In this document: positions 1 to 10,500 of the stretch, piece after piece
Numbering within the stretch: the stretch's first letter is position 1
How the letters are laid out: each line of letters starts with the position of its first letter
Virus record (IMG/VR): IMGVR_UViG_2526164662_000036
DNA length: 30,682 bases
Source of the DNA: a virus
Taxonomy: Duplodnaviria; Heunggongvirae; Uroviricota; Caudoviricetes
Reading direction: 5' to 3' (one strand)
Position numbers and translations under genes: made by a program
The notes under the pieces: model-generated
What the model was told of the DNA's origin: nothing
The model's database searches: none
Seen by the model: only the letters and a program-made list of their open reading frames with translations

Positions 1-1284
1 TTACAGACTTCTGGAAGGTTGCGCAGCTCTTACAACACGCGGTTGATCTTCCGCAGCGTCTTCCAGCGCACTTAAATCACGGTCTTTCACCTCTGGCATT
101 TTCAGCGCAGAGATTAAACCAATTACTGAATATGCCATGATCATAATGGCGATCGGATACCAGGATTCCGTCATGGTGCAGAAAATACCCGCCAGGATAG
201 GACCAAAACCGGAAGCGATAAGACCACCAATTTCTTTAGAAATAGCCATCCGGGTAAAGCGGTTTTTACAGCCGAACATTTCTGCCATGGTAATGTTTTC
301 CAGAGCAAATAATCCCAGCACCGCACAGTTATGAATCACAATCAGTGCAACCATAATGGTGCTCGGGGCATAGCTTTTATCTACAATGATAGAAAGCATT
401 GGCCATGCCAGCACAATCGCGGAGGTATTCATAATAATATACGGGATCCGGCGACCAATTTTATCGGATAACCAACCAAGGAACGGAATGGTCATAAAGC
501 CGAGAATCGAACTAATCATCAATGCATCTGTTGGAATTGCTTTGTTAAACAATAACGTCTGCACTAAATAGCCTGCAAGGAAAGTCTGAATTAACCCGGA
601 GTTACCCGCCTGACCAAAACGCAGCCCTGTTGCCAGCCAGAAGGATTTGCTCTGGAACATGCTACCAGCAGGTGCAGGTTTTGCTGTGGGTTGGTTGCTG
701 TCGTTAACCTTCTCAAAGACCGGGCTTTCTTTCAGATTCATACGCAACCAGATAGCAAAGACCATCACGACAACGCTCGCCAGGAACGGTATACGCCATC
801 CCCACGCAAGCAGTTCCTCTTTACTGAGAATGAAGAACATAAAGGCCCAGATTGCCGTTGCGCTCAAGGTTCCGCAGTTAGTTCCCATAGCTACAAATGA
901 GGAGATAATTCCGCGCTTACCTTTTGGCGCATATTCCGCCAGCATCGTACCGGCACCGGAAATTTCCGCACCTGCACCCAACCCCTGAATAATACGCAGC
1001 GTCACCAGCAAGATGGGGGCAAAAACACCAATCTGTGCATAGGTCGGTAACACACCAATTAAGGTGGTACAGATCCCCATCATGGTGATGGTAATAAAGA
1101 GCACTTTTTTACGCCCTATTCTGTCGCCCATTTTGCCGAAAATAAATGCTCCGACAATACGCGCCACATAACCTGCACCGTAGGTTCCCATTGCCAAAAT
1201 TAACGCCATTGCCGTTGATGATTCAGGAAAAAATATTTCATGAAACACTAACGCTGCGCCGAGCGAATATAACTGGAAATCCAT
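1..1284 (-). CDS. ydfJ: MFS transporter (metabolite:H+ symporter family), YdfJ-like; apparently lacks the N-terminal ~25-40 residues and part of TM1
   Basis: 427-aa ORF, hydrophobic throughout, MFS motif GKMGDRIGRKK between predicted TM2 and TM3; compared with ProP/KgtP-type paralogs the ORF starts inside the conserved EWFDFxVYG segment of TM1, and an in-frame stop lies 2 codons upstream of the ATG. Confidence 0.75.
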   Translation of the reverse strand: MDFQLYSLGAALVFHEIFFPESSTAMALILAMGTYGAGYVARIVGAFIFGKMGDRIGRKKVLFITITMMGICTTLIGVLPTYAQIGVFAPILLVTLRIIQGLGAGAEISGAGTMLAEYAPKGKRGIISSFVAMGTNCGTLSATAIWAFMFFILSKEELLAWGWRIPFLASVVVMVFAIWLRMNLKESPVFEKVNDSNQPTAKPAPAGSMFQSKSFWLATGLRFGQAGNSGLIQTFLAGYLVQTLLFNKAIPTDALMISSILGFMTIPFLGWLSDKIGRRIPYIIMNTSAIVLAWPMLSIIVDKSYAPSTIMVALIVIHNCAVLGLFALENITMAEMFGCKNRFTRMAISKEIGGLIASGFGPILAGIFCTMTESWYPIAIMIMAYSVIGLISALKMPEVKDRDLSALEDAAEDQPRVVRAAQPSRSL

Positions 1285-1876
1285 AATTCACAGGTGTTTT
1301 TTCCCATCCTGTGGTTTCCTTGGCGTTTTCTAGGTTTTTTCAGATAGTTGCATTTTTTAAAAAGCATCCTAAGTTCGATCTCAGTGTCTATCTGGGGCCT
1401 ATTCCTGTCCCATATATGCCCCAAAAAACTCCCCAACAGATAAGTAGTTTTTTCATGGATTTACGCGTAAAATCAATAACGGCTGGAAATCATTCAATAC
1501 TCGCACTATCGAAAAATTTACCAGCCAACCGCAGCACGTTCTTGCATAAGGCGTGTCTGCGGTTTTTCAACTATTCAGATACATCACTCCCATCACATTC
1601 ATTCCTCCGCATCATAGGCTATCACCTTGATATTTTTCTTCTTCAGATAAAAACTGTTATCTATGTATACTTTTAAACCCAATCCGTGTAGAGTCTCTGC
1701 ATAAGATAGTTTGCAGTTGCCGCTTCAGCTTGCGCCATAAACCGCCTGATTTTTGCTGCCACCTGTTAGCATTCCTGTATACCTGAAACGACAATGTTTA
1801 TCTACGAACTTTAAGAACACCCAAGATAAAAATTGTCAACTATATCATATATAACACATTACTAATTCGAGGCTAT

Positions 1877-1990
1877 ATGAACAGCATTCTGATAATCACT
1901 TCTCTCCTTATCATATTCAGCATTTTTAGTCATGCCCTAATAAAATTAGGGATTGGCATATCCAATAACCCAGACAAAACCGATGTATAA
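1877..1990 (+). CDS. candidate small hydrophobic membrane protein (37 aa, [37 protein letters not shown])
   Basis: ATG preceded by GAGG about 5 nt upstream; one predicted TM helix followed by a short polar tail; below the 60-aa cutoff of the ORF track; no homology check possible. Confidence 0.3.
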
Positions 1991-2058
1991 GTCAACATAT
2001 CCTGAATCAGACATACAATATCGCAATGAAAATCAATAATATTTTAAGGAACATCTTC

Positions 2059-2292
2059 ATGAAATCAAAAGACACCCTAAAGTGGTTCCCTGCGCAGCTT
2101 CCTGAAGTAAGAATTATCCTAGGGGATGCTGTAGTGGAAGTAGCAAAACAGGGAAGACCTATCAATACCAGAACATTGCTTGATTACATTGAAGGAAACA
2201 TAAAGAAAAAATCATGGCTGGATAACAAAGAATTATTACAAACAGCGATATCAGTTCTTAAAGACAACCAAAATTTAAATGGTAAAATGTAA
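2059..2292 (+). CDS. ydfK: YdfK/YnaE-family small prophage protein (cold-shock-associated in K-12)
   Basis: ORF 2026..2292; the internal ATG at 2059 has an AGGA Shine-Dalgarno about 8 nt upstream, whereas the 2026 ATG has none; product MKSKDTLKWFPAQLPEVRIILGD... matches my recollection of YdfK/YnaE (77 aa). Confidence 0.55.
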   Translation: MKSKDTLKWFPAQLPEVRIILGDAVVEVAKQGRPINTRTLLDYIEGNIKKKSWLDNKELLQTAISVLKDNQNLNGKM

Positions 2293-2608
2293 TATAATAA
2301 ACTTACTTTTTTATCATTTTTCCACTTTAACAACATTTTGCTCCACTTTTCCACGACCAAACAACTTGAAATCTGGTTAAAATAACACGCAACACTATTC
2401 TTCTTCCTTGAGTCCGCCCGGAACTCGAAAAACAAACCGAGTTAAAGCCATTTTTCACAAAATCGATTTTGGGTCTCACCAAAATTACGGGGTTGCATAC
2501 GCATTCGTTTATTTTCGAACGTGTACATACAAATATGCACAAAAATAATCATAATTATTTTCTGAGATGCATTATGATATGAATACCAATTTCGTATAGA
2601 GTCTCACT

Positions 2609-3199
2609 ATGTCTCGAATTTTTGCTTACTGTCGGATATCAACGCTGGATCAGACCACCGAAAATCAACGCCGGGAAATCGAAAGTGCAGGTTTTAAAAT
2701 CAAACCTCAGCAAATAATCGAAGAACACATTAGCGGCTCAGCAGCAACCAGTGAGCGTCCTGGTTTTAACCGGTTGCTTGCTCGCCTGAAATGTGGTGAT
2801 CAATTGATTGTGACAAAACTGGATCGCCTTGGTTGTAATGCAATGGATATCAGGAAAACAGTGGAACAACTGACCGAAACAGGTATCAGAGTGCATTGCT
2901 TAGCATTGGGGGGCATTGACCTGACCAGTCCAACAGGAAAAATGATGATGCACGTAATTTCAGCAGTCGCTGAATTTGAACGAGACCTTTTACTTGAACG
3001 CACTCATTCCGGGATAGTAAGAGCCCGCGGCGCAGGGAAACGTTTTGGTCGACCACCTGTGTTAAATGAAGAACAGAAACAGGTGGTATTCGAACGAATT
3101 AAGTCAGGTGTAAGTATAAGTGCCATTGCCCGGGAATTCAAAACCTCACGGCAAACCATTTTAAGAGCCAAAGCAAAACTTCAGACACCTGACATATAA
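2609..3199 (+). CDS. pinQ: serine recombinase of the resolvase/invertase family, PinQ/PinR-like (196 aa)
   Basis: N-terminal catalytic motif [10 protein letters not shown] (Ser nucleophile), resolvase core, C-terminal helix-turn-helix ([11 protein letters not shown]); length and sequence fit the PinQ/PinR paralogs of K-12 cryptic prophages. Confidence 0.85.
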
Positions 3200-3296
3200 A
3201 AAATAATCTCGGTGTGAGATGCTTTACGTCTTCCAAGCCCCCTTCCTTGCCGTAAATGGAAAGATACATCTAATTATAGAATTTATATGTTTTACC

Positions 3297-3872
3297 CTAC
3301 GGCAGTGCTGGCCATTCAATATCCTGTGCAGTTGACGTATCAACACGGTTCAGCAACACCCGATACTTTTTCCAGGCTTCCAGCAATGAGGTTTCTTCCT
3401 CCGTTGCGATTTCCAGAGCTACAGCATCCTGAAGTGGCGCAATATGCTCACTGGCTACCTGCATCAGGCTGTTTTTTGTTTCTTCCGCCTCTCGGATCCG
3501 GAACAGTTTTTCTGCTTCTGCATCTTTCACCCAGGCTGTGCCGTTCCACTTCTGAAACTCCCCTTCCGGCGATAACCAGGTAACATTTTCCGGTAACGGA
3601 CCGAGTTCAGAAATAAATAACGCGTCCCCTGACGCTACGTCATAAACCGTTTTACCCCGATGGTCTTCAACGAGATGCCACGATGCCTTATCACTGTTGA
3701 AAACAGCCACAAAGCCAGCAGGAATATCTGGTGGTGCAATATCGGTACTGTTTGCTGGCAGACCTGTATGAGGCGGAATATATGCGTCACCTTCACCAAT
3801 AAATTCATTAGTTCCGGCCAGCAGATTATAAATTTTTATGGTCCGTGGTTGTTCACTCATTCTGAATACCAT
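3297..3872 (-). CDS. tfa: tail fibre assembly protein Tfa
   Basis: 191-aa ORF immediately downstream of stf with ATGA start/stop overlap; sequence resembles lambdoid Tfa chaperones. Confidence 0.8.
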
Positions 3873-6832
3873 TATGCAAGCCTCACAATATAGTTAAATG
3901 CGATGTTTTTGACGGTGTTTTCCGCGTTACCAGCAGCGTTAACGGTGATGGTGTGTCCATGTGAACCAATCGCAACGGAGTGCGTATGAGCACCAATACC
4001 GACAGTATGCGCGTGTGCACCTGCAGATGCTGCTGTGCCGGACAGTGAGTGGCTATGATTACCATCTGTACTGGTATTCGCTAACCACCCCGTAGACATA
4101 CCTACTGAGCCTTGTACACCCCAGGTATTTTGACCTGAGCTTGTATAACCATATTGATAAGTATCTTTAAAAACACTGGGGTTAAATCGACGGCCATCTC
4201 TATGGCTGTGATTACCAGCTGCATTCGTGCTGCCACTTAAACTATGGGTATGCGCACCAGTGTTATTCGTGGATTTAGTGCCGTAATCAAACGACGATGT
4301 GGTTTTCGTCCCCAAATCCGTACTGGATGCGCTGGCGCTGTGGGTATGCGATTTAATGCCGTCCTGTTCCTGAGACAATACGGCCCGACCACTGGCAGGT
4401 TTGCCCTTAATCGTCCAGCCACGCATATCAGGGATCACGCCTGACGGATAAGCCGCTGCAAGTTTCGGGTATGCAGATTTGTCAAAAGCCTGCCCCTGCA
4501 TCAGGGCATAACCAGACGGAACGGTATCTGATGGCCACGGGATTGGTGCGCCAGGCGGATAAAACTGCTCTGATGGCGTATAGAGTGAATAAACTGTACC
4601 GTCCGTTAACCCTTCCGGCTTATTAGCAGAATATGCTGGTGACGTATGAATAGTCACGCTGGCATTACTGGTATAATCCCATTGAATATTTACACCAGTC
4701 GCATAATTTCCGATTGCAACGTAAATATCGTAAGTATCACCAGATGTATTGACCCAGGCAAAATTTGTAAACCCTGTCGATGTGCGCTGCCATAAAGCAC
4801 CAGTAATCCCCTTCGGATTACCATTACCTGCACGCAAAACAAGTTCAGATATACCTGCCTGTTGAGGTGACCCCACGTTAAATCCCGCGCCACCAATCAA
4901 CGTAATTGAAACAACAGAACTCGCCTGTGGCATGGTTACCGTTGCTAATTTGAACCAACCAGCACCACCGCTGAATGACATTGTTGTTGAGTTAAGCGTA
5001 CCAATATCTTTCGGCGTCAGTGTTATATCCGCTGAAAGCGCCTTACCATTCACCTTACGGGCAGAAGGTACCCGACCATTCGCATTATCATTAGCTGCTT
5101 TCACTGCTTTCGGTGTCGCGGCAAGCGTTTCAGATGCGCTGTTGGTTGCACTACTGAGCTGGACAATTCCTTTTTGTGCTGTCGTAGCGTCCTGAGCGGT
5201 ATATTTCCCGTTAGCAAGGTCATAGGCTGCCTTTACCGACTTTGGCGTTGCCGCCAGCATTTCAGATGTGCTGTTGGTCGCGCTGCTGAGCTGAACTATC
5301 CCTTTCTGTGCTGTCGTTGCATCCTGTGCGGTGTATTTCCCGTTAGCCAGGTCATACGCGGCCTTAACGGCTTTTGGCGTTGCCGCCAGTGACTCGGAAG
5401 TGCTGTTAGTCGCACTGCTTAGCTGGACTATCCCCTTTTTCGTCGTGCTCGCATCCTCAAGCGCCACGGCGGATGCAATATCCTCTGCCCGTTTAGCTGC
5501 TGTCTCGGCGCGCGTTGCCGCGGATTCCGCCGTACTTTTGCTCTGAGCTGCCGCCGTCGCACTGCCAGCTGCCTCTGTCGCCTTCGTGGATGCCGTCGTG
5601 GCGCTGCTCTTCGCTGCTGACGCCTGTCTGGTCGCCTCATCTTTTGAAGCAGACGCCGATGATGCCGATGACGCCGCCGAACTGGCTGACGATGCGGCAG
5701 CCGTTTTTGAGGATTCTGCGCTGGTTTCCGACGCTTTCGCGTTCGTTTCGGATGTCTTCGCTGCGGATGCAGACCTCGCTGCTGCGCTGGCCTGTTCCGC
5801 GGCTTCGCCAGCCTTCGTTGTGGCTGTTGAAGCGGACGATGCAGCGCTTTCTGCCGATTTTCCGGCGGCGCTAGCACTGGCTGAGGCCTGCCCCGCACTT
5901 GTTGACGCTGCACTGGCAGACGACGCAGCCGCTGTTTTTGAGTCTGCTGCTGCGGAGGCACTCTGTTCCGCTGCCGTTTCAGAAGACTTAGCGTTCGTCT
6001 CGGACGTTTTTGCCGCCTTCGCGGAATTTCCTGCCGCCGTTGCCGAGGAAGCTGCGCTGCTGGCGCTCGAGGCTGCGTTCGTTTCTGATGATTTTGCCGC
6101 CTCTTTTGAAGCCGACGCATCCCGGGCTGAGGTGGCAGCTTCTGACGCTTTCGTGGTCGCGGTGGATGCAGAAGTGGCTGCTGATTGTTGTGACGCTGCC
6201 GCATTCGTTTCTGACGTTTTCGCCGCACCGGCACTGGTGGCCGCCGCGCTTTTTGAGGACTCTGCAGCGGCAGCACTTTTTGATGCCTCAGAGGCTTTTG
6301 CTGATGCCGTTCCTGCGCTGGAAAAAGCCTCCTGAGCCGACGAAGCGGCCTGTCCGGCTGACGTGCTGGCTGCGCGTGCTGAGCCTGCAGCATCAGTCGC
6401 ATGGGTTGCCGCCTCACGGGCTGATGTGCTGGCATCGCTGGCTGACTTCTTCGCGGCTGCCGTGTTCTGTGCCACCGCGGACGCGTTACGCGCCACCTCT
6501 TCCACCATCAGTTCAAAACGGCGCAGTGCCTCCGGCCGGACGTCATCCTCCGACATGGCACCGAGAAAATCATTCAGCGTACCGGGTTGAGAATCTTCAT
6601 ACACGGTGATGGTCCCGGCATGTGACGGCGGGAAGCCCTCCACCAACAGAATAACGCTGTACTGACCGTACTCAACGTCCATGCTGTAACGCCCGGCTTC
6701 ATCCGGATTTTCTGAGGCCAGCGTGTTCACCACCACCGTGGTACTGTTACGTTTTGCTTTCAGCTGGATTGTGCAGTTCTGTACCGGTTTTCCTGTGCCG
6801 TCTTTCAGTACACCTGAAATCTTTACTGCCAT
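3872..6832 (-). CDS. stf: side tail fibre protein Stf
   Basis: N-terminus [26 protein letters not shown] matches lambda Stf; long Ala/Ser/Thr-rich low-complexity tract; three tandem 44-aa repeats; His-rich C-terminal domain with repeated HxH motifs (GAHTHS, GNHSHS, GSHGHT). The track ORF starts at a GTG at 6838; the ATG at 6832 is the more likely start. Confidence 0.9.
5055..5445 (-). repeat. three tandem 132-bp (44-codon) in-frame repeats inside stf (third copy partial)
   Basis: Near-identical units beginning at about 5156, 5288 and 5420 on the plus strand, encoding [15 protein letters not shown](S/M)LAATPK(A/S)[21 protein letters not shown]. Confidence 0.85.
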
Positions 6833-6842
6833 ATTCACCCCA

Positions 6843-6869
6843 CAAAAAAGCCCGCCTGAACCGGCGGGC
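6843..6869 (-). terminator. rho-independent terminator downstream of lom
   Basis: Perfect 7-bp GC stem GCCCGCC/GGCGGGC (6850-6856 / 6863-6869) followed on the minus strand by a U6 run (plus-strand A6 at 6844-6849). Confidence 0.7.
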
Positions 6870-6896
6870 TGTCATAACACTGTGTTACCTGGCTAA

Positions 6897-7496
6897 TCAG
6901 AATTTATAACCGACACCCACGATGAAACCGTCAGTGCGCCAGTCGCCACTGCCGGAGCCTTCATAAGCAATATCAATGGCCACGGATTCGGTCGGGTTAA
7001 ACTGCACGCCAGCTCCCCACGCCAGAGACGTGTTGCTGTGGCGACCGTCATCACTTCCGGTCAGCACGTCGTGCGTTTTCCCCTTGTTGTCAGTTACGCG
7101 GAGATAATCCCCGGAGAAAGTCGACACACGGCTGTAAGACACACCCGCCATCGCATACGCGCTGAACCATTCATTCACGCGCACAGACGGCCCCGCCATC
7201 ACGCTGAACCAGCGGTTACGCACGGAATCTTCATGCCAGCGGATATCGCTGTAACGGGTAAGCTGGCGATTCTTGTCTCCTGCATAGCTGAATGACGTCA
7301 CCAGCCCCAGTGTGTCCGTAAACTCATAACGGTATTTCACGTTAATCCCGTTCAGATCATCGCTGCCGGGAACGTTCGTCGAGGCATGAAGATACCCCGC
7401 GCTCAGCGTGGACTGATGTTCAGATGCCCATGCAGACGCACCGGATACGGCCAGACAAATAGCTGCGGACAAAATGGCTGCATAAAGTTTACGCAT
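6897..7496 (-). CDS. lom: Lom outer membrane protein (Ail/Lom/PagC family beta-barrel)
   Basis: Signal peptide [25 protein letters not shown]-terminus ...[24 protein letters not shown] is the lambda Lom C-terminus; sits between J and stf as in lambda. Confidence 0.9.
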
Positions 7497-7566: not shown

Positions 7567-10500
7567 TCAACGAATACTGATACCGGAAGCCGCTTTTTTG
7601 GTCACAATCACCGTACAGTCGGTGATATTCCCTGCCCCCTGATTGCCTTTCTGGAAAATCTTAAACTCCAGAGTGACGCTACCACCACCACTAGGCATAT
7701 CAATAACTGCACTGTAACTACCGGGAATGGCCCCTTTAGTTTCTCTGGATGCGATTAATACACCGTTTTTGCGAACTTCAAAACCATAACCCGTGTATCT
7801 TGTACCTCCCGGGTTATTTCCGCTCCCCGGATCGTCATACGCTATACCGTTAAAAATAATGGGCGGAATAATAATCTGGCGGTCAAAGTTATGATCATCG
7901 CTGATGGTGACTGTAACCGTACCGTCTGGTGTTTCCGTGTTACCCCACGTACCGACTTTTTTCGGGAAGGCTTTTGATACAGCTTTAACGAAATCCCCTC
8001 TGACCTGGGTCGCCTCCAGCATGCCCTTAATCGTACAGTTCTGGTTAATCGTGACATTGTTGAGCGTTCCTGAGTTCGCATTCACACTGCCACTGATATC
8101 CGCATTTTTAGCGGTCAGCTTTCCGTCTGATGTCAGGGAAAATACCGGAGGACTGCCACCACTGGTAATGGTGGGGGCCGTCAGGCGCTTCAGGAACACG
8201 TCGTTCATGAATATCTGATTGCCCTGCGCCACAAACATCGGCGTTTCATTCCCGTTTGCCGGGTCAATAAACGCGATACGGTTAGCGGCAACCAGAAACT
8301 GGCTCAGCTTGCCTTCCTCCGTGTCCTCCATGCTGAGGCCAATACCCGCGACATAATGTTTGCCGTCTTTGGTCTGCTCAATTTTGACGCCCCACATGGC
8401 ATTCCATTTATCGTTAGCGTCCTTCCACTCTTTCGAAAACTCATCCAGTCTGCTGGCGTTATCCTCCGTCAGATCAACTTTTTCCAGCAGCTCCTTGCCG
8501 AGATGGGATTCGGTTATCTTGCCTTTGAAAAAATCCAGGTAACCTTCCGCATCATCGCTCGCCCGACCGACGGCCTCCACGAATGCCGATTTGCCAACGG
8601 TGTTCACACTGCGGATATAAAAGTAATAATCATGGCCCGGTTTGATATTGATACTGGCGGCTATCCAGTACAGCCCCGTGCCAAGGTAGCGGGCTGTGGT
8701 TTCAACCTGCCTGATATCGGTAATCCGCGTTTCCGAGAACCAGAACTCAAACTGTACCGTCGGATCATAAACCGCAAGATGCGGCGTGGCAGTTATCTGA
8801 AAATAGCCCGGCGTCAGCTCAATCCGCGACGGCGCTGCCGGGGCGGCAATCCGGAACGATACCGACGCCGGATCGCCCTGCTGTCCCCGGGCATTTACTG
8901 CCCGGACCGTCAGCGTGTAACGCCCCAGCGCCAGCTGCCTGAAGCGGTAAGTGGTTTCCGTCGTCCGGGCCGTGCTGACCAGCCGCTCACTGCCGTCATC
9001 GGCGGCCACGGTCAGGCGAAGCATAAAGCTCACACCCTTCACTACCTTCGGCGTGTCCCAGCGCGCCAGCACCTGATACTCCCCACTGTCTGCGGTGACT
9101 TCTGCGGTCAGGTGCTGCACCGCTGGCGGCGTGACACCATTCACCGTGCCGCTCTGGTCGCCGTCAAAGTGCGCTCCGTTATCCACGATGGCCTCTTTTT
9201 CCGGCACATGCTGCACGGCAGTGATGGCATACATGCCGTCGTCGTTCTCACGGATACTCACACAGCGGAACAGGCGCTGGCGCAGCGTCGGCAGCTTCAG
9301 CCCCCACACGCTGTATCCGGCAACGCCGTCAGGAACACGGCTCACTTTCACCTTCACGCCGTCGGTGACGGACTGAACCTCCACGCTGACCGGATTGCCA
9401 CTTCCGTCAACCAGGCTTATCAGCGTGGTACCGGAGGATGGCAGCGTGATTTCACGGTCGAGCGTCAGCGTCCGGGTCTGGCTGTTCACCGCCAGCACAC
9501 GCCCGCCGGTGCTGATCCACGCATAGTCATCATCACAGATTTCAATGACATCGCCCGGTACATGGCGAAGCCCTTCTGCGCCCACGCTGAAGTCCACGGT
9601 CTGCGTCTCCAGCAGCTCCGTTTTAATCAGCCACAGCCCGGCGCGGTGTGCCTCGCCCCGACTGGTACAGCCAAAGGCATCCATCTTCGTGACGTTACGA
9701 CCGTAACGGACAATGGCCTGCGTATCCTCCACAAGCTCTGTCGCCGTCTCCCAGCCGTTATTCGGGTCAATCCAGTTCACCTCAACGGCATTATGACGGT
9801 CCTTCAGGGCGCTGAAGCTGTAGCGGAACGGCGCGCCATCATCCGGCATCACCACATTACTGCGGTTATAGGTCCACACCTTATCCGATGGCCGGTCCTG
9901 CACGAACGTCAGCGTCTGCCCGTTCCATACCGGCATACAGCGCATCGCCGAGCAGAAATCACTGAGCACATCCCACGCCTTGCGCTGCGTGGTCAGGTAC
10001 GCATTACAGGTGATACGCGGTTCCGTGCCACCAAAGCCATCCGGCACCGACTGGTCGCAATTCTGGCCGATGACATACAGCGCCCATTTATCCACATCCG
10101 CCGCACCAAGACGTTTCCCCATGCCGTAGCGCGGATGGGTCAGCATATCCCACAGACACCAGGCCATGTTGTTGCTGTATGCCGGTTTTAACGTTCCGTC
10201 CCAGATACCGCTGTATTGTCGCGTCTGCGGGTTATAGTTCGACGGCACCTGCAGAATGCGCCCGCGAAGATGATAATTACGACTCACCTGCTGGCTGCCG
10301 AACTGCTCCGAATCCACCTGTACGCCGACCAGTGCCGTGTTCGGGTAGCACTGTTTCACATCGATGATTTCGGTGTATGACGACCAGAGCGTTTTGTTCT
10401 GCAGCTGGTCTGTGGTGCTGTCCGGCGTCATCCTGCGCATCCGGATATTAAACGGGCGCGGCGGCAGGTTATCCACCACCACCGAGGCCAGATACTGCGA

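Follow-up and report, generated by a model that had tools for sequence, protein, structure and literature searches.

The ydfJ gene at the start of the DNA analyzed here has lost its 28 N-terminal codons to the integration of a lambda-like (Qin-type) prophage inside the gene, and the best explanation of the whole region, of which we are very nearly certain, is that it crosses attR of a Qin-type lambdoid prophage of ~51.4 kb integrated in ydfJ. In reverse complement, this stretch of 30,682 nucleotides (hereafter the window) matches the Escherichia coli B1_2 chromosome (NZ_CP074764.1) with 100% identity, window position x corresponding to record position 4975382-x. The events that produced it can be outlined as follows. 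A lambda-like tyrosine integrase recombined attP, CTTGAAATCCATAATTCA, with a 19-bp attB, CTGGAAATCCATAAATTCA, which spans ydfJ codons 27-33, and the exchange took place inside the shared GAAATCCATAA. The gene was thereby split, such that codons 29-455 remained beside ydfI with a phage-derived TGA two codons upstream of Met29, whereas codons 1-28, along with rspA-rspB upstream of them, were moved ~51 kb away, beside int and xis, where these codons form a 36-aa ynfP-like ORF. The window begins in host ydfJ and crosses the right-hand junction (attR) of the prophage. The features to which the text refers are listed below.

1-1284, minus strand: 5'-truncated ydfJ, encoding an MHS-family MFS transporter; codons 29-455 of the ancestral 455-aa gene, with the ORF start at internal Met29
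1276-1286: common core of attR, GAAATCCATAA, 11 bp, the same in attP, attB, attL and attR according to a four-way and a three-way alignment
1273-1290: extended att similarity of 18 bp, reading CTGGAAATCCATAATTCA here, with imperfect flanks counted; includes the phage-derived TGA at 1288-1290
1287-1550: phage arm of attR (P arm in the lambda convention), non-coding; without a counterpart at the empty site, and kept among different ydfJ prophages and free phages
1406-1422: invariant block TGTCCCATATATGCCCC within the arm, unchanged in all four aligned prophages; candidate arm-type Int site
1877-1990, plus strand: ynfT, a gene for a 37-aa small protein of the prophage end, annotated in B1_2 and K-12
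2059-2292, plus strand: ydfK, which encodes a cold-shock protein of the prophage (longest ORF from 2026)
1287-30682: prophage body in the window, ~29.4 kb of ~51.4 kb; pinQ, tfaQ and a 988-aa tail fibre, then large minus-strand ORFs

The truncation is no statistical inference but follows directly from comparing occupied sites with empty ones. The ORF list gives a 427-aa product for positions 1-1284 of the minus strand, with the N-terminus MDFQLYSLGAALVF (MDFQLY), and the minus strand reads ...CTG TGA ATT ATG into the gene, the ATG being at 1284-1282 and the TGA at 1290-1288, two codons upstream of the ORF start, just where an earlier model reading of the letters (the first-pass annotation) had noticed a stop. 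In B1_2 the gene is labeled by PGAP as 'MHS family MFS transporter YdfJ, incomplete, missing N-terminus'. At the prophage-free site of strain 2-331, ydfJ is 1368 nt long (455 aa) and rspB lies directly upstream, with 57 nt between the rspB stop codon and the ydfJ start; the 2-331 protein begins MTIEKHERSTKDLVKAAVSGWLGTALEF-MDFQLY..., in which MTIEKHERSTKDLVKAAVSGWLGTALEF corresponds to the 28 codons absent from the window ORF. As the prophage-free gene starts 28 codons earlier and encodes 455 aa, the window ORF is without its 28 N-terminal codons, a loss that falls within the 25-40 codons proposed from the letters alone.

Protein profiles placed the truncation at the same point. The TIGR00883 MHS profile was covered from position 7 to 400 by the window protein and from 1 to 400 by the intact 455-aa allele, so that coverage from profile position 1, which marks a full-length MHS N-terminus, was found in the intact allele only. 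The match to the ShiA model started at position 37 for the window protein versus 12 for the intact allele, and that to the ProP model at 40 versus 22. In ProP, position 40 is occupied by the D of the EWFDF motif, and the earlier alignment of the ORF start to this motif is therefore sound; the profile starts agree with it and place MDF opposite FDF. The earlier placement of the ORF start halfway through TM1 is plausible; when intact YdfJ was searched against PDB sequences for TM1 boundaries, no match was returned at E<=1e-5.

It might instead be supposed that the MDFQLY methionine is the natural start of ydfJ and that positions 1285-2025 are ordinary host intergenic DNA with no junction, as RefSeq lists a 427-aa YdfJ CDS for K-12 and the 427-aa product of the window still scores above the curated TIGR00883 cutoff (453.5 versus 443.45). 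We give this reading practically no credence. The first-pass annotation had itself named intact orthologues that begin at MDFQLY behind the same upstream sequence as the observation that would speak against a truncation, but the genomes with an empty site encode 455 aa and have a different sequence upstream; moreover, the 28 missing codons adjoin the integrase at the other end of the prophage, and positions 1287-1600 are found in free phage genomes beside int. The empty sites, the orphan fragment and the attP alignment thus refute a natural start at MDFQLY, and integration inside ydfJ is the reading followed below.

The missing part of the gene was recovered from the far end of the prophage, where the first-pass annotation had proposed to look for it next to an integrase. 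The 84 nt absent from the window lie ~51.4 kb off in the same genome, between rspB and an intact site-specific tyrosine integrase with its excisionase. Reading from rspB in B1_2, a 57-nt spacer leads to the first 84 nt of ydfJ, which run into the core; the stop codon of a 426-aa integrase comes after a further 37 nt of phage DNA, and the excisionase gene is next. The two copies of the core are 51,406 bp apart (B1_2 record 4922690 and 4974096). The ydfJ ORF that remains in the window is separated both from the co-oriented rspA-rspB and from its own start codon. The insertion lies between ydfJ codons 28 and 29 at the att core, with the orphan fragment and rspB beside the integrase. The integrase contains the PF00589 Phage_integrase (5.7e-18) and PF12167 Arm-DNA-bind_2 (1.6e-23) domains, a combination that identifies it as a lambda-type heterobivalent tyrosine recombinase.

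The orphan 5' fragment translates as MTIEKHERSTKDLVKAAVSGWLGTALEFMDFKSHVC* and forms a ynfP-like ORF of 36 aa (positions 7609-7719 of the far-end locus, L004; B1_2 record 4922608-4922718), which consists of 31 YdfJ residues followed by five prophage codons, KSHVC in B1_2 and KSHAC in K-12. Its K-12 counterpart is ynfP (1652728..1652838), whose protein, MTIEKHERSTKDLVKAAVSGWLGTALEFMDFKSHAC, was detected in K-12 by VanOrsdel et al. 2018 (PMC6001520 Table 1). The start codon of host ydfJ still drives translation of this fusion stub, given the detection of YnfP in K-12 (PMC6001520).

The exchange point was defined by aligning the attP of the free phage HannyBb, attL, attR of the window and the empty attB, which read as follows.

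attP (HannyBb): ...CATGACTCT T GAAATCCATAA TTCACAGGTG...
attL: ...CATGACTCT T GAAATCCATAA ATTCAAGCGC...
attR (window): ...AATATAACT G GAAATCCATAA TTCACAGGTG...
attB: ...AATATAACT G GAAATCCATAA ATTCAAGCGC...

The HannyBb attP equals the left half of attL joined to the right half of attR, and attL and attR together restore attB exactly, with no host bases lost. Because the core is identical in attP, attB, attL and attR, strand exchange must fall inside the 11-bp GAAATCCATAA, and the alignment shows the classical POP' x BOB' reciprocal exchange. In its extended form the similarity covers 18 bp of attP and attR and 19 bp of attB (window 1273-1290). The window matches the empty site through 1286, or as far as 1290 if one nucleotide is gapped within an A run, and is unrelated to it beyond, so the junction that had been expected near 1285 is placed at 1276-1286, or up to 1290 if the gap is allowed; the alignment to genomes with an uninterrupted ydfJ, which had been suggested as a check, gave the junction at 1276-1290 and defined the att core. 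The attR core also includes the CAT at 1282-1284 that forms the ATG of Met29, and since this codon is within the core, the same 427-aa ORF is left at every occupied site.

From the right edge of the core onward, the sequence belongs entirely to the prophage. Positions 1287-1600 match internal parts of four free phage genomes (HannyBb, Tritos, PhiR42_1 and mEp460_ev081) at 98-99% identity, and in HannyBb the matching region lies directly downstream of xis and int, such that int and the arm on its side run without a break through the core into the window-side arm. The free-phage attP therefore joins both arms across the core, and the 84-nt ydfJ fragment is present at the int-proximal end. As positions 1291-2025 have no counterpart at empty sites but occur beside int in free phages, they are prophage-terminal DNA, which agrees with the earlier suggestion that 1285-2025 is not host intergenic sequence.

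A truncation by deletion, by an IS event or by homologous recombination between prophages, rather than by site-specific integration, could be imagined, since IS elements occur frequently within and around such prophages and inversions between the ydfJ and ompW prophages have been reported (PMC8112680). Nevertheless, we hold it to be very improbable: no host bases are missing, attL and attR add up to attB exactly, the same breakpoint is common to unrelated prophages, and the four-way att alignment bears the mark of an exchange that was reciprocal and conservative, within a short core identical at all four sites. Neither host bases missing or duplicated at the junctions nor breakpoints varying between strains were seen. 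No observation speaks against the integration model.

The phage arm next to the core (1287-1550) is conserved in K-12 Qin, CUVET20 and O157 Z1816, and is 98-99% identical in HannyBb, Tritos, PhiR42_1 and mEp460_ev081. The O157 copy of the arm differs at many positions outside the block at 1406-1422. The conserved blocks of the arm are putative binding sites for Int, Xis or IHF, judged from sequence conservation. The motif TGCCCCA occurs as two tandem copies in the int-proximal arm and as one copy, located in the invariant block, in the window-side arm, which also has an inverted near-copy at 1393-1400; the motif is short and shows no enrichment window-wide. These arm blocks and motifs are candidate arm-type Int sites. 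An inverted repeat, CACAGG-N12-CCTGTG (1289-1313), adjoins the core on the phage side; the attP of the free phage has it as well, and it could serve Int as a core-type site or bind an accessory protein.

Other sequences have entered or resemble parts of this arm. In O157:H7 Z1816 (L007 ~4416-4658; equivalent to ~window 1430), a dinI-like gene of ~200 nt is inserted in the middle of the arm and is followed by the nleC effector gene; in this O157 ydfJ prophage the att arm tolerates insertion of cargo between its conserved blocks. A 43-nt piece of the arm (1469-1511) has a 93% match to a 238-kb E. coli plasmid (NZ_AP027638.1), with no annotated feature beneath it.

The distribution of the insertion was investigated with a 300-nt probe that spans the empty site, run against 5426 complete E. 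coli genomes. The attB probe was contiguous in 2009 of these, and 63% of complete E. coli genomes, K-12 included, had no contiguous attB. Among the examples listed of interrupted genomes, the probe was split with its ends overlapping at probe positions 133/136 to 151, which correspond to window 1273/1276-1290 and represent the same 16-19 bp. About 1985 genomes matched all of window 1-2600 (a Qin-type end with ynfT and ydfK), and K-12-lineage records had 98.7% identity over this range. In CUVET20 and O157 the match stops at ~1548-1562, with different cargo beyond, and in TOE17 it stops at 1334, where an IS5-family element has been inserted.

Both the truncation and the integration were fully anticipated, having been annotated and described before in K-12 and in numerous further strains. 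The 28-codon truncation of ydfJ with loss of its promoter has been described (PMC6379469 Fig 4E), and ydfJ was given as a Qin/lambda-like insertion site in the strain W and SE11 genome papers (PMC3032704, PMC2608844). Nakamura et al. 2021 demonstrated attP of a ydfJ prophage by PCR, with an att of 18 or 19 bp (PMC8112680 S7 Fig), the amplicon being that of the O26 PPydfJ, thus from a strain other than B1_2 (PMC8112680). The statement in the first-pass annotation that K-12 ydfJ is interrupted by Qin is also correct: the feature 'cryptic prophage Qin' of NC_000913.3 begins 9 nt inside ydfJ.

Comparison with K-12 Qin (NC_000913.3 1632277..1652745) showed that both elements use attB in ydfJ with the core at the same position (window 1276 = 1632277), leave the same 427-aa remnant, have the terminal gene order ynfT-ydfK-pinQ-tfaQ-stf, and carry the orphan fragment (ynfP) beside the integrase end. 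However, K-12 Qin is a remnant of 20.5 kb in which intQ is a pseudogene and no head or major tail genes are annotated, whereas the B1_2 element has ~51.4 kb, intact int and xis, a 988-aa tail fibre of full length with large ORFs behind it at the expected place of tail and head genes, and IS3 and IS66 elements in its early region. The PPydfJ prophages of STEC and EPEC (PMC8112680) are likewise lambda-like, integrated in ydfJ and provided with an att of 18/19 bp, and the arm is conserved in the O157:H7 example; they differ in carrying T3SS effector loci (e.g., nleC) and the dinI-like arm insert and in often forming tandem clusters, none of which is present in the window. The temperate phages HannyBb, Tritos, PhiR42_1 and mEp460_ev081 share the arm but are free, with genomes that are not integrated, and HannyBb provides attP. 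With the lambda Int system the prophage shares a heterobivalent integrase with an adjacent excisionase, a short identical core between phage arms, and an int end near the core; unlike the insertion in ydfJ, lambda attB is intergenic, with no gene damaged. Rac in ttcA, another prophage at the 5' end of an E. coli gene, changes the N-terminus of TtcA without removing it (PMC6379469), whereas the N-terminus of ydfJ has no replacement.

What the truncated gene still does is a separate question, and a retained function is the sole reading that would have any novelty. With the junction as described, the 427-aa remnant could be an expressed and functional transporter that starts at Met29 and is driven by prophage or read-through transcription, a proposal that we consider unlikely. 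In its favor, the ORF is intact and free of internal stops in each of the six interrupted strains compared (that of the window plus five more), the TIGR00883 profile is shortened by only 6 positions, and the K-12 RefSeq annotation keeps the CDS. Nearly all allele differences are synonymous in the comparisons of the window ORF with loci L001, L002, L005, L006 and L007, which include the uninterrupted 2-331 (L001); between the window and the truncated K-12 ORF there are 10 synonymous and 0 non-synonymous differences. Pairwise dN/dS was 0.00-0.09 wherever synonymous differences exist, in a comparison that cannot separate selection before the insertion from selection after it, as interrupted and intact strains share identical alleles. 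In particular, the interrupted K-12 allele equals the uninterrupted 2-331 allele over 1284 nt, so that gain and loss of the prophage are recent relative to allelic divergence; since this divergence largely predates the insertion or is decoupled from it, dN/dS says little about post-insertion selection.

Further evidence against a functional product comes from the sequence ahead of the gene. No Shine-Dalgarno-like sequence precedes the ATG (ACACCTGTGAATTATG), no promoter-like site on the minus strand was seen within ~750 nt upstream, and the neighboring prophage genes (ynfT, ydfK, pinQ) are oriented away from it; the protein has also lost the conserved beginning of the MHS profile. A scan of positions 1150-2700 gave 7 promoter-like sites versus 5.0 +/- 2.3 expected, none of them placed to drive the truncated ydfJ, and found no terminators in the same range. 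Because a Shine-Dalgarno sequence and a nearby promoter are absent and the prophage genes are divergent, the ORF is read as a remnant, and we infer that truncated ydfJ is non-functional or poorly expressed. On the other hand, as the ORF is intact in six strains with mostly synonymous differences and is retained as a CDS in K-12, a 'dead remnant' is not proven. The annotations themselves conflict, since RefSeq treats K-12 b1543 ydfJ as an ordinary 427-aa CDS with a 9-nt overlap with Qin, whereas PGAP calls the identical ORF a pseudogene missing its N-terminus (L002, L003, L006 and L007).

A more specific and slightly less probable proposal is that the remnant is kept by selection in the occupied majority of E. 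coli, acting either from Met29 alone or with trans-complementation by the separately translated 36-aa YnfP, in which the missing N-terminal segment is found. If so, the effect of prophage occupancy on the rspAB-ydfJI sugar-acid locus would be a rewiring and not a destruction. A literature search for an L-gulonate pathway assignment of rspA, rspB and ydfI gave nothing usable, and no claim about a substrate is made.

With regard to annotation, the 427-aa 'YdfJ' in databases is a prophage-truncated product of a true protein of 455 aa, and 'YnfP' is the orphan N-terminus of YdfJ fused to five phage codons. As the insertion splits ydfJ-ydfI from rspA-rspB in 63% of genomes, work on the function of this locus calls for a strain whose site is empty. 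Together, the exact att core and the free-phage attP provide clean boundaries for delimiting a very variable prophage hotspot.

Concerning the prophage itself, the end of its body in the window is near the lysis and cold-shock gene region. The K-12 counterpart of the protein encoded at 1877-1990 has been detected experimentally, under the name ynfQ (PMC6001520 Table 1). By position, the large minus-strand ORFs that follow the tail fibre should be tail, head and terminase genes. Beyond the window, the early/replication region (L004 14943-22393; B1_2 record ~4929942-4937392) contains one IS3-family and two IS66-family elements and several fragmented genes; because of these IS3 and IS66 insertions, the B1_2 prophage may no longer excise and is probably defective, despite its intact int and xis and full-length tail-fibre genes. 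A Pin-type invertible segment beside pinQ was considered and rejected, as an inverted-repeat search of 1200-7000 gave only weak pairs with 73-87% complementarity. An Rfam scan of the whole window detected no RNA family in 1-2025, and its sole match in the window was IS009 (RF02111; 3331-3529, minus strand, 219 bits, full length), which lies wholly inside tfaQ (3297-3872, minus strand) and may merely track the conserved coding sequence of that gene. The tail-fibre ORF (3872-6838, minus strand, 988 aa) has a long low-complexity middle rich in Ala, Ser and Thr, with three near-identical repeats of 30 residues, whereas stfQ at the equivalent position of K-12 Qin is a far shorter ORF of 963 nt.
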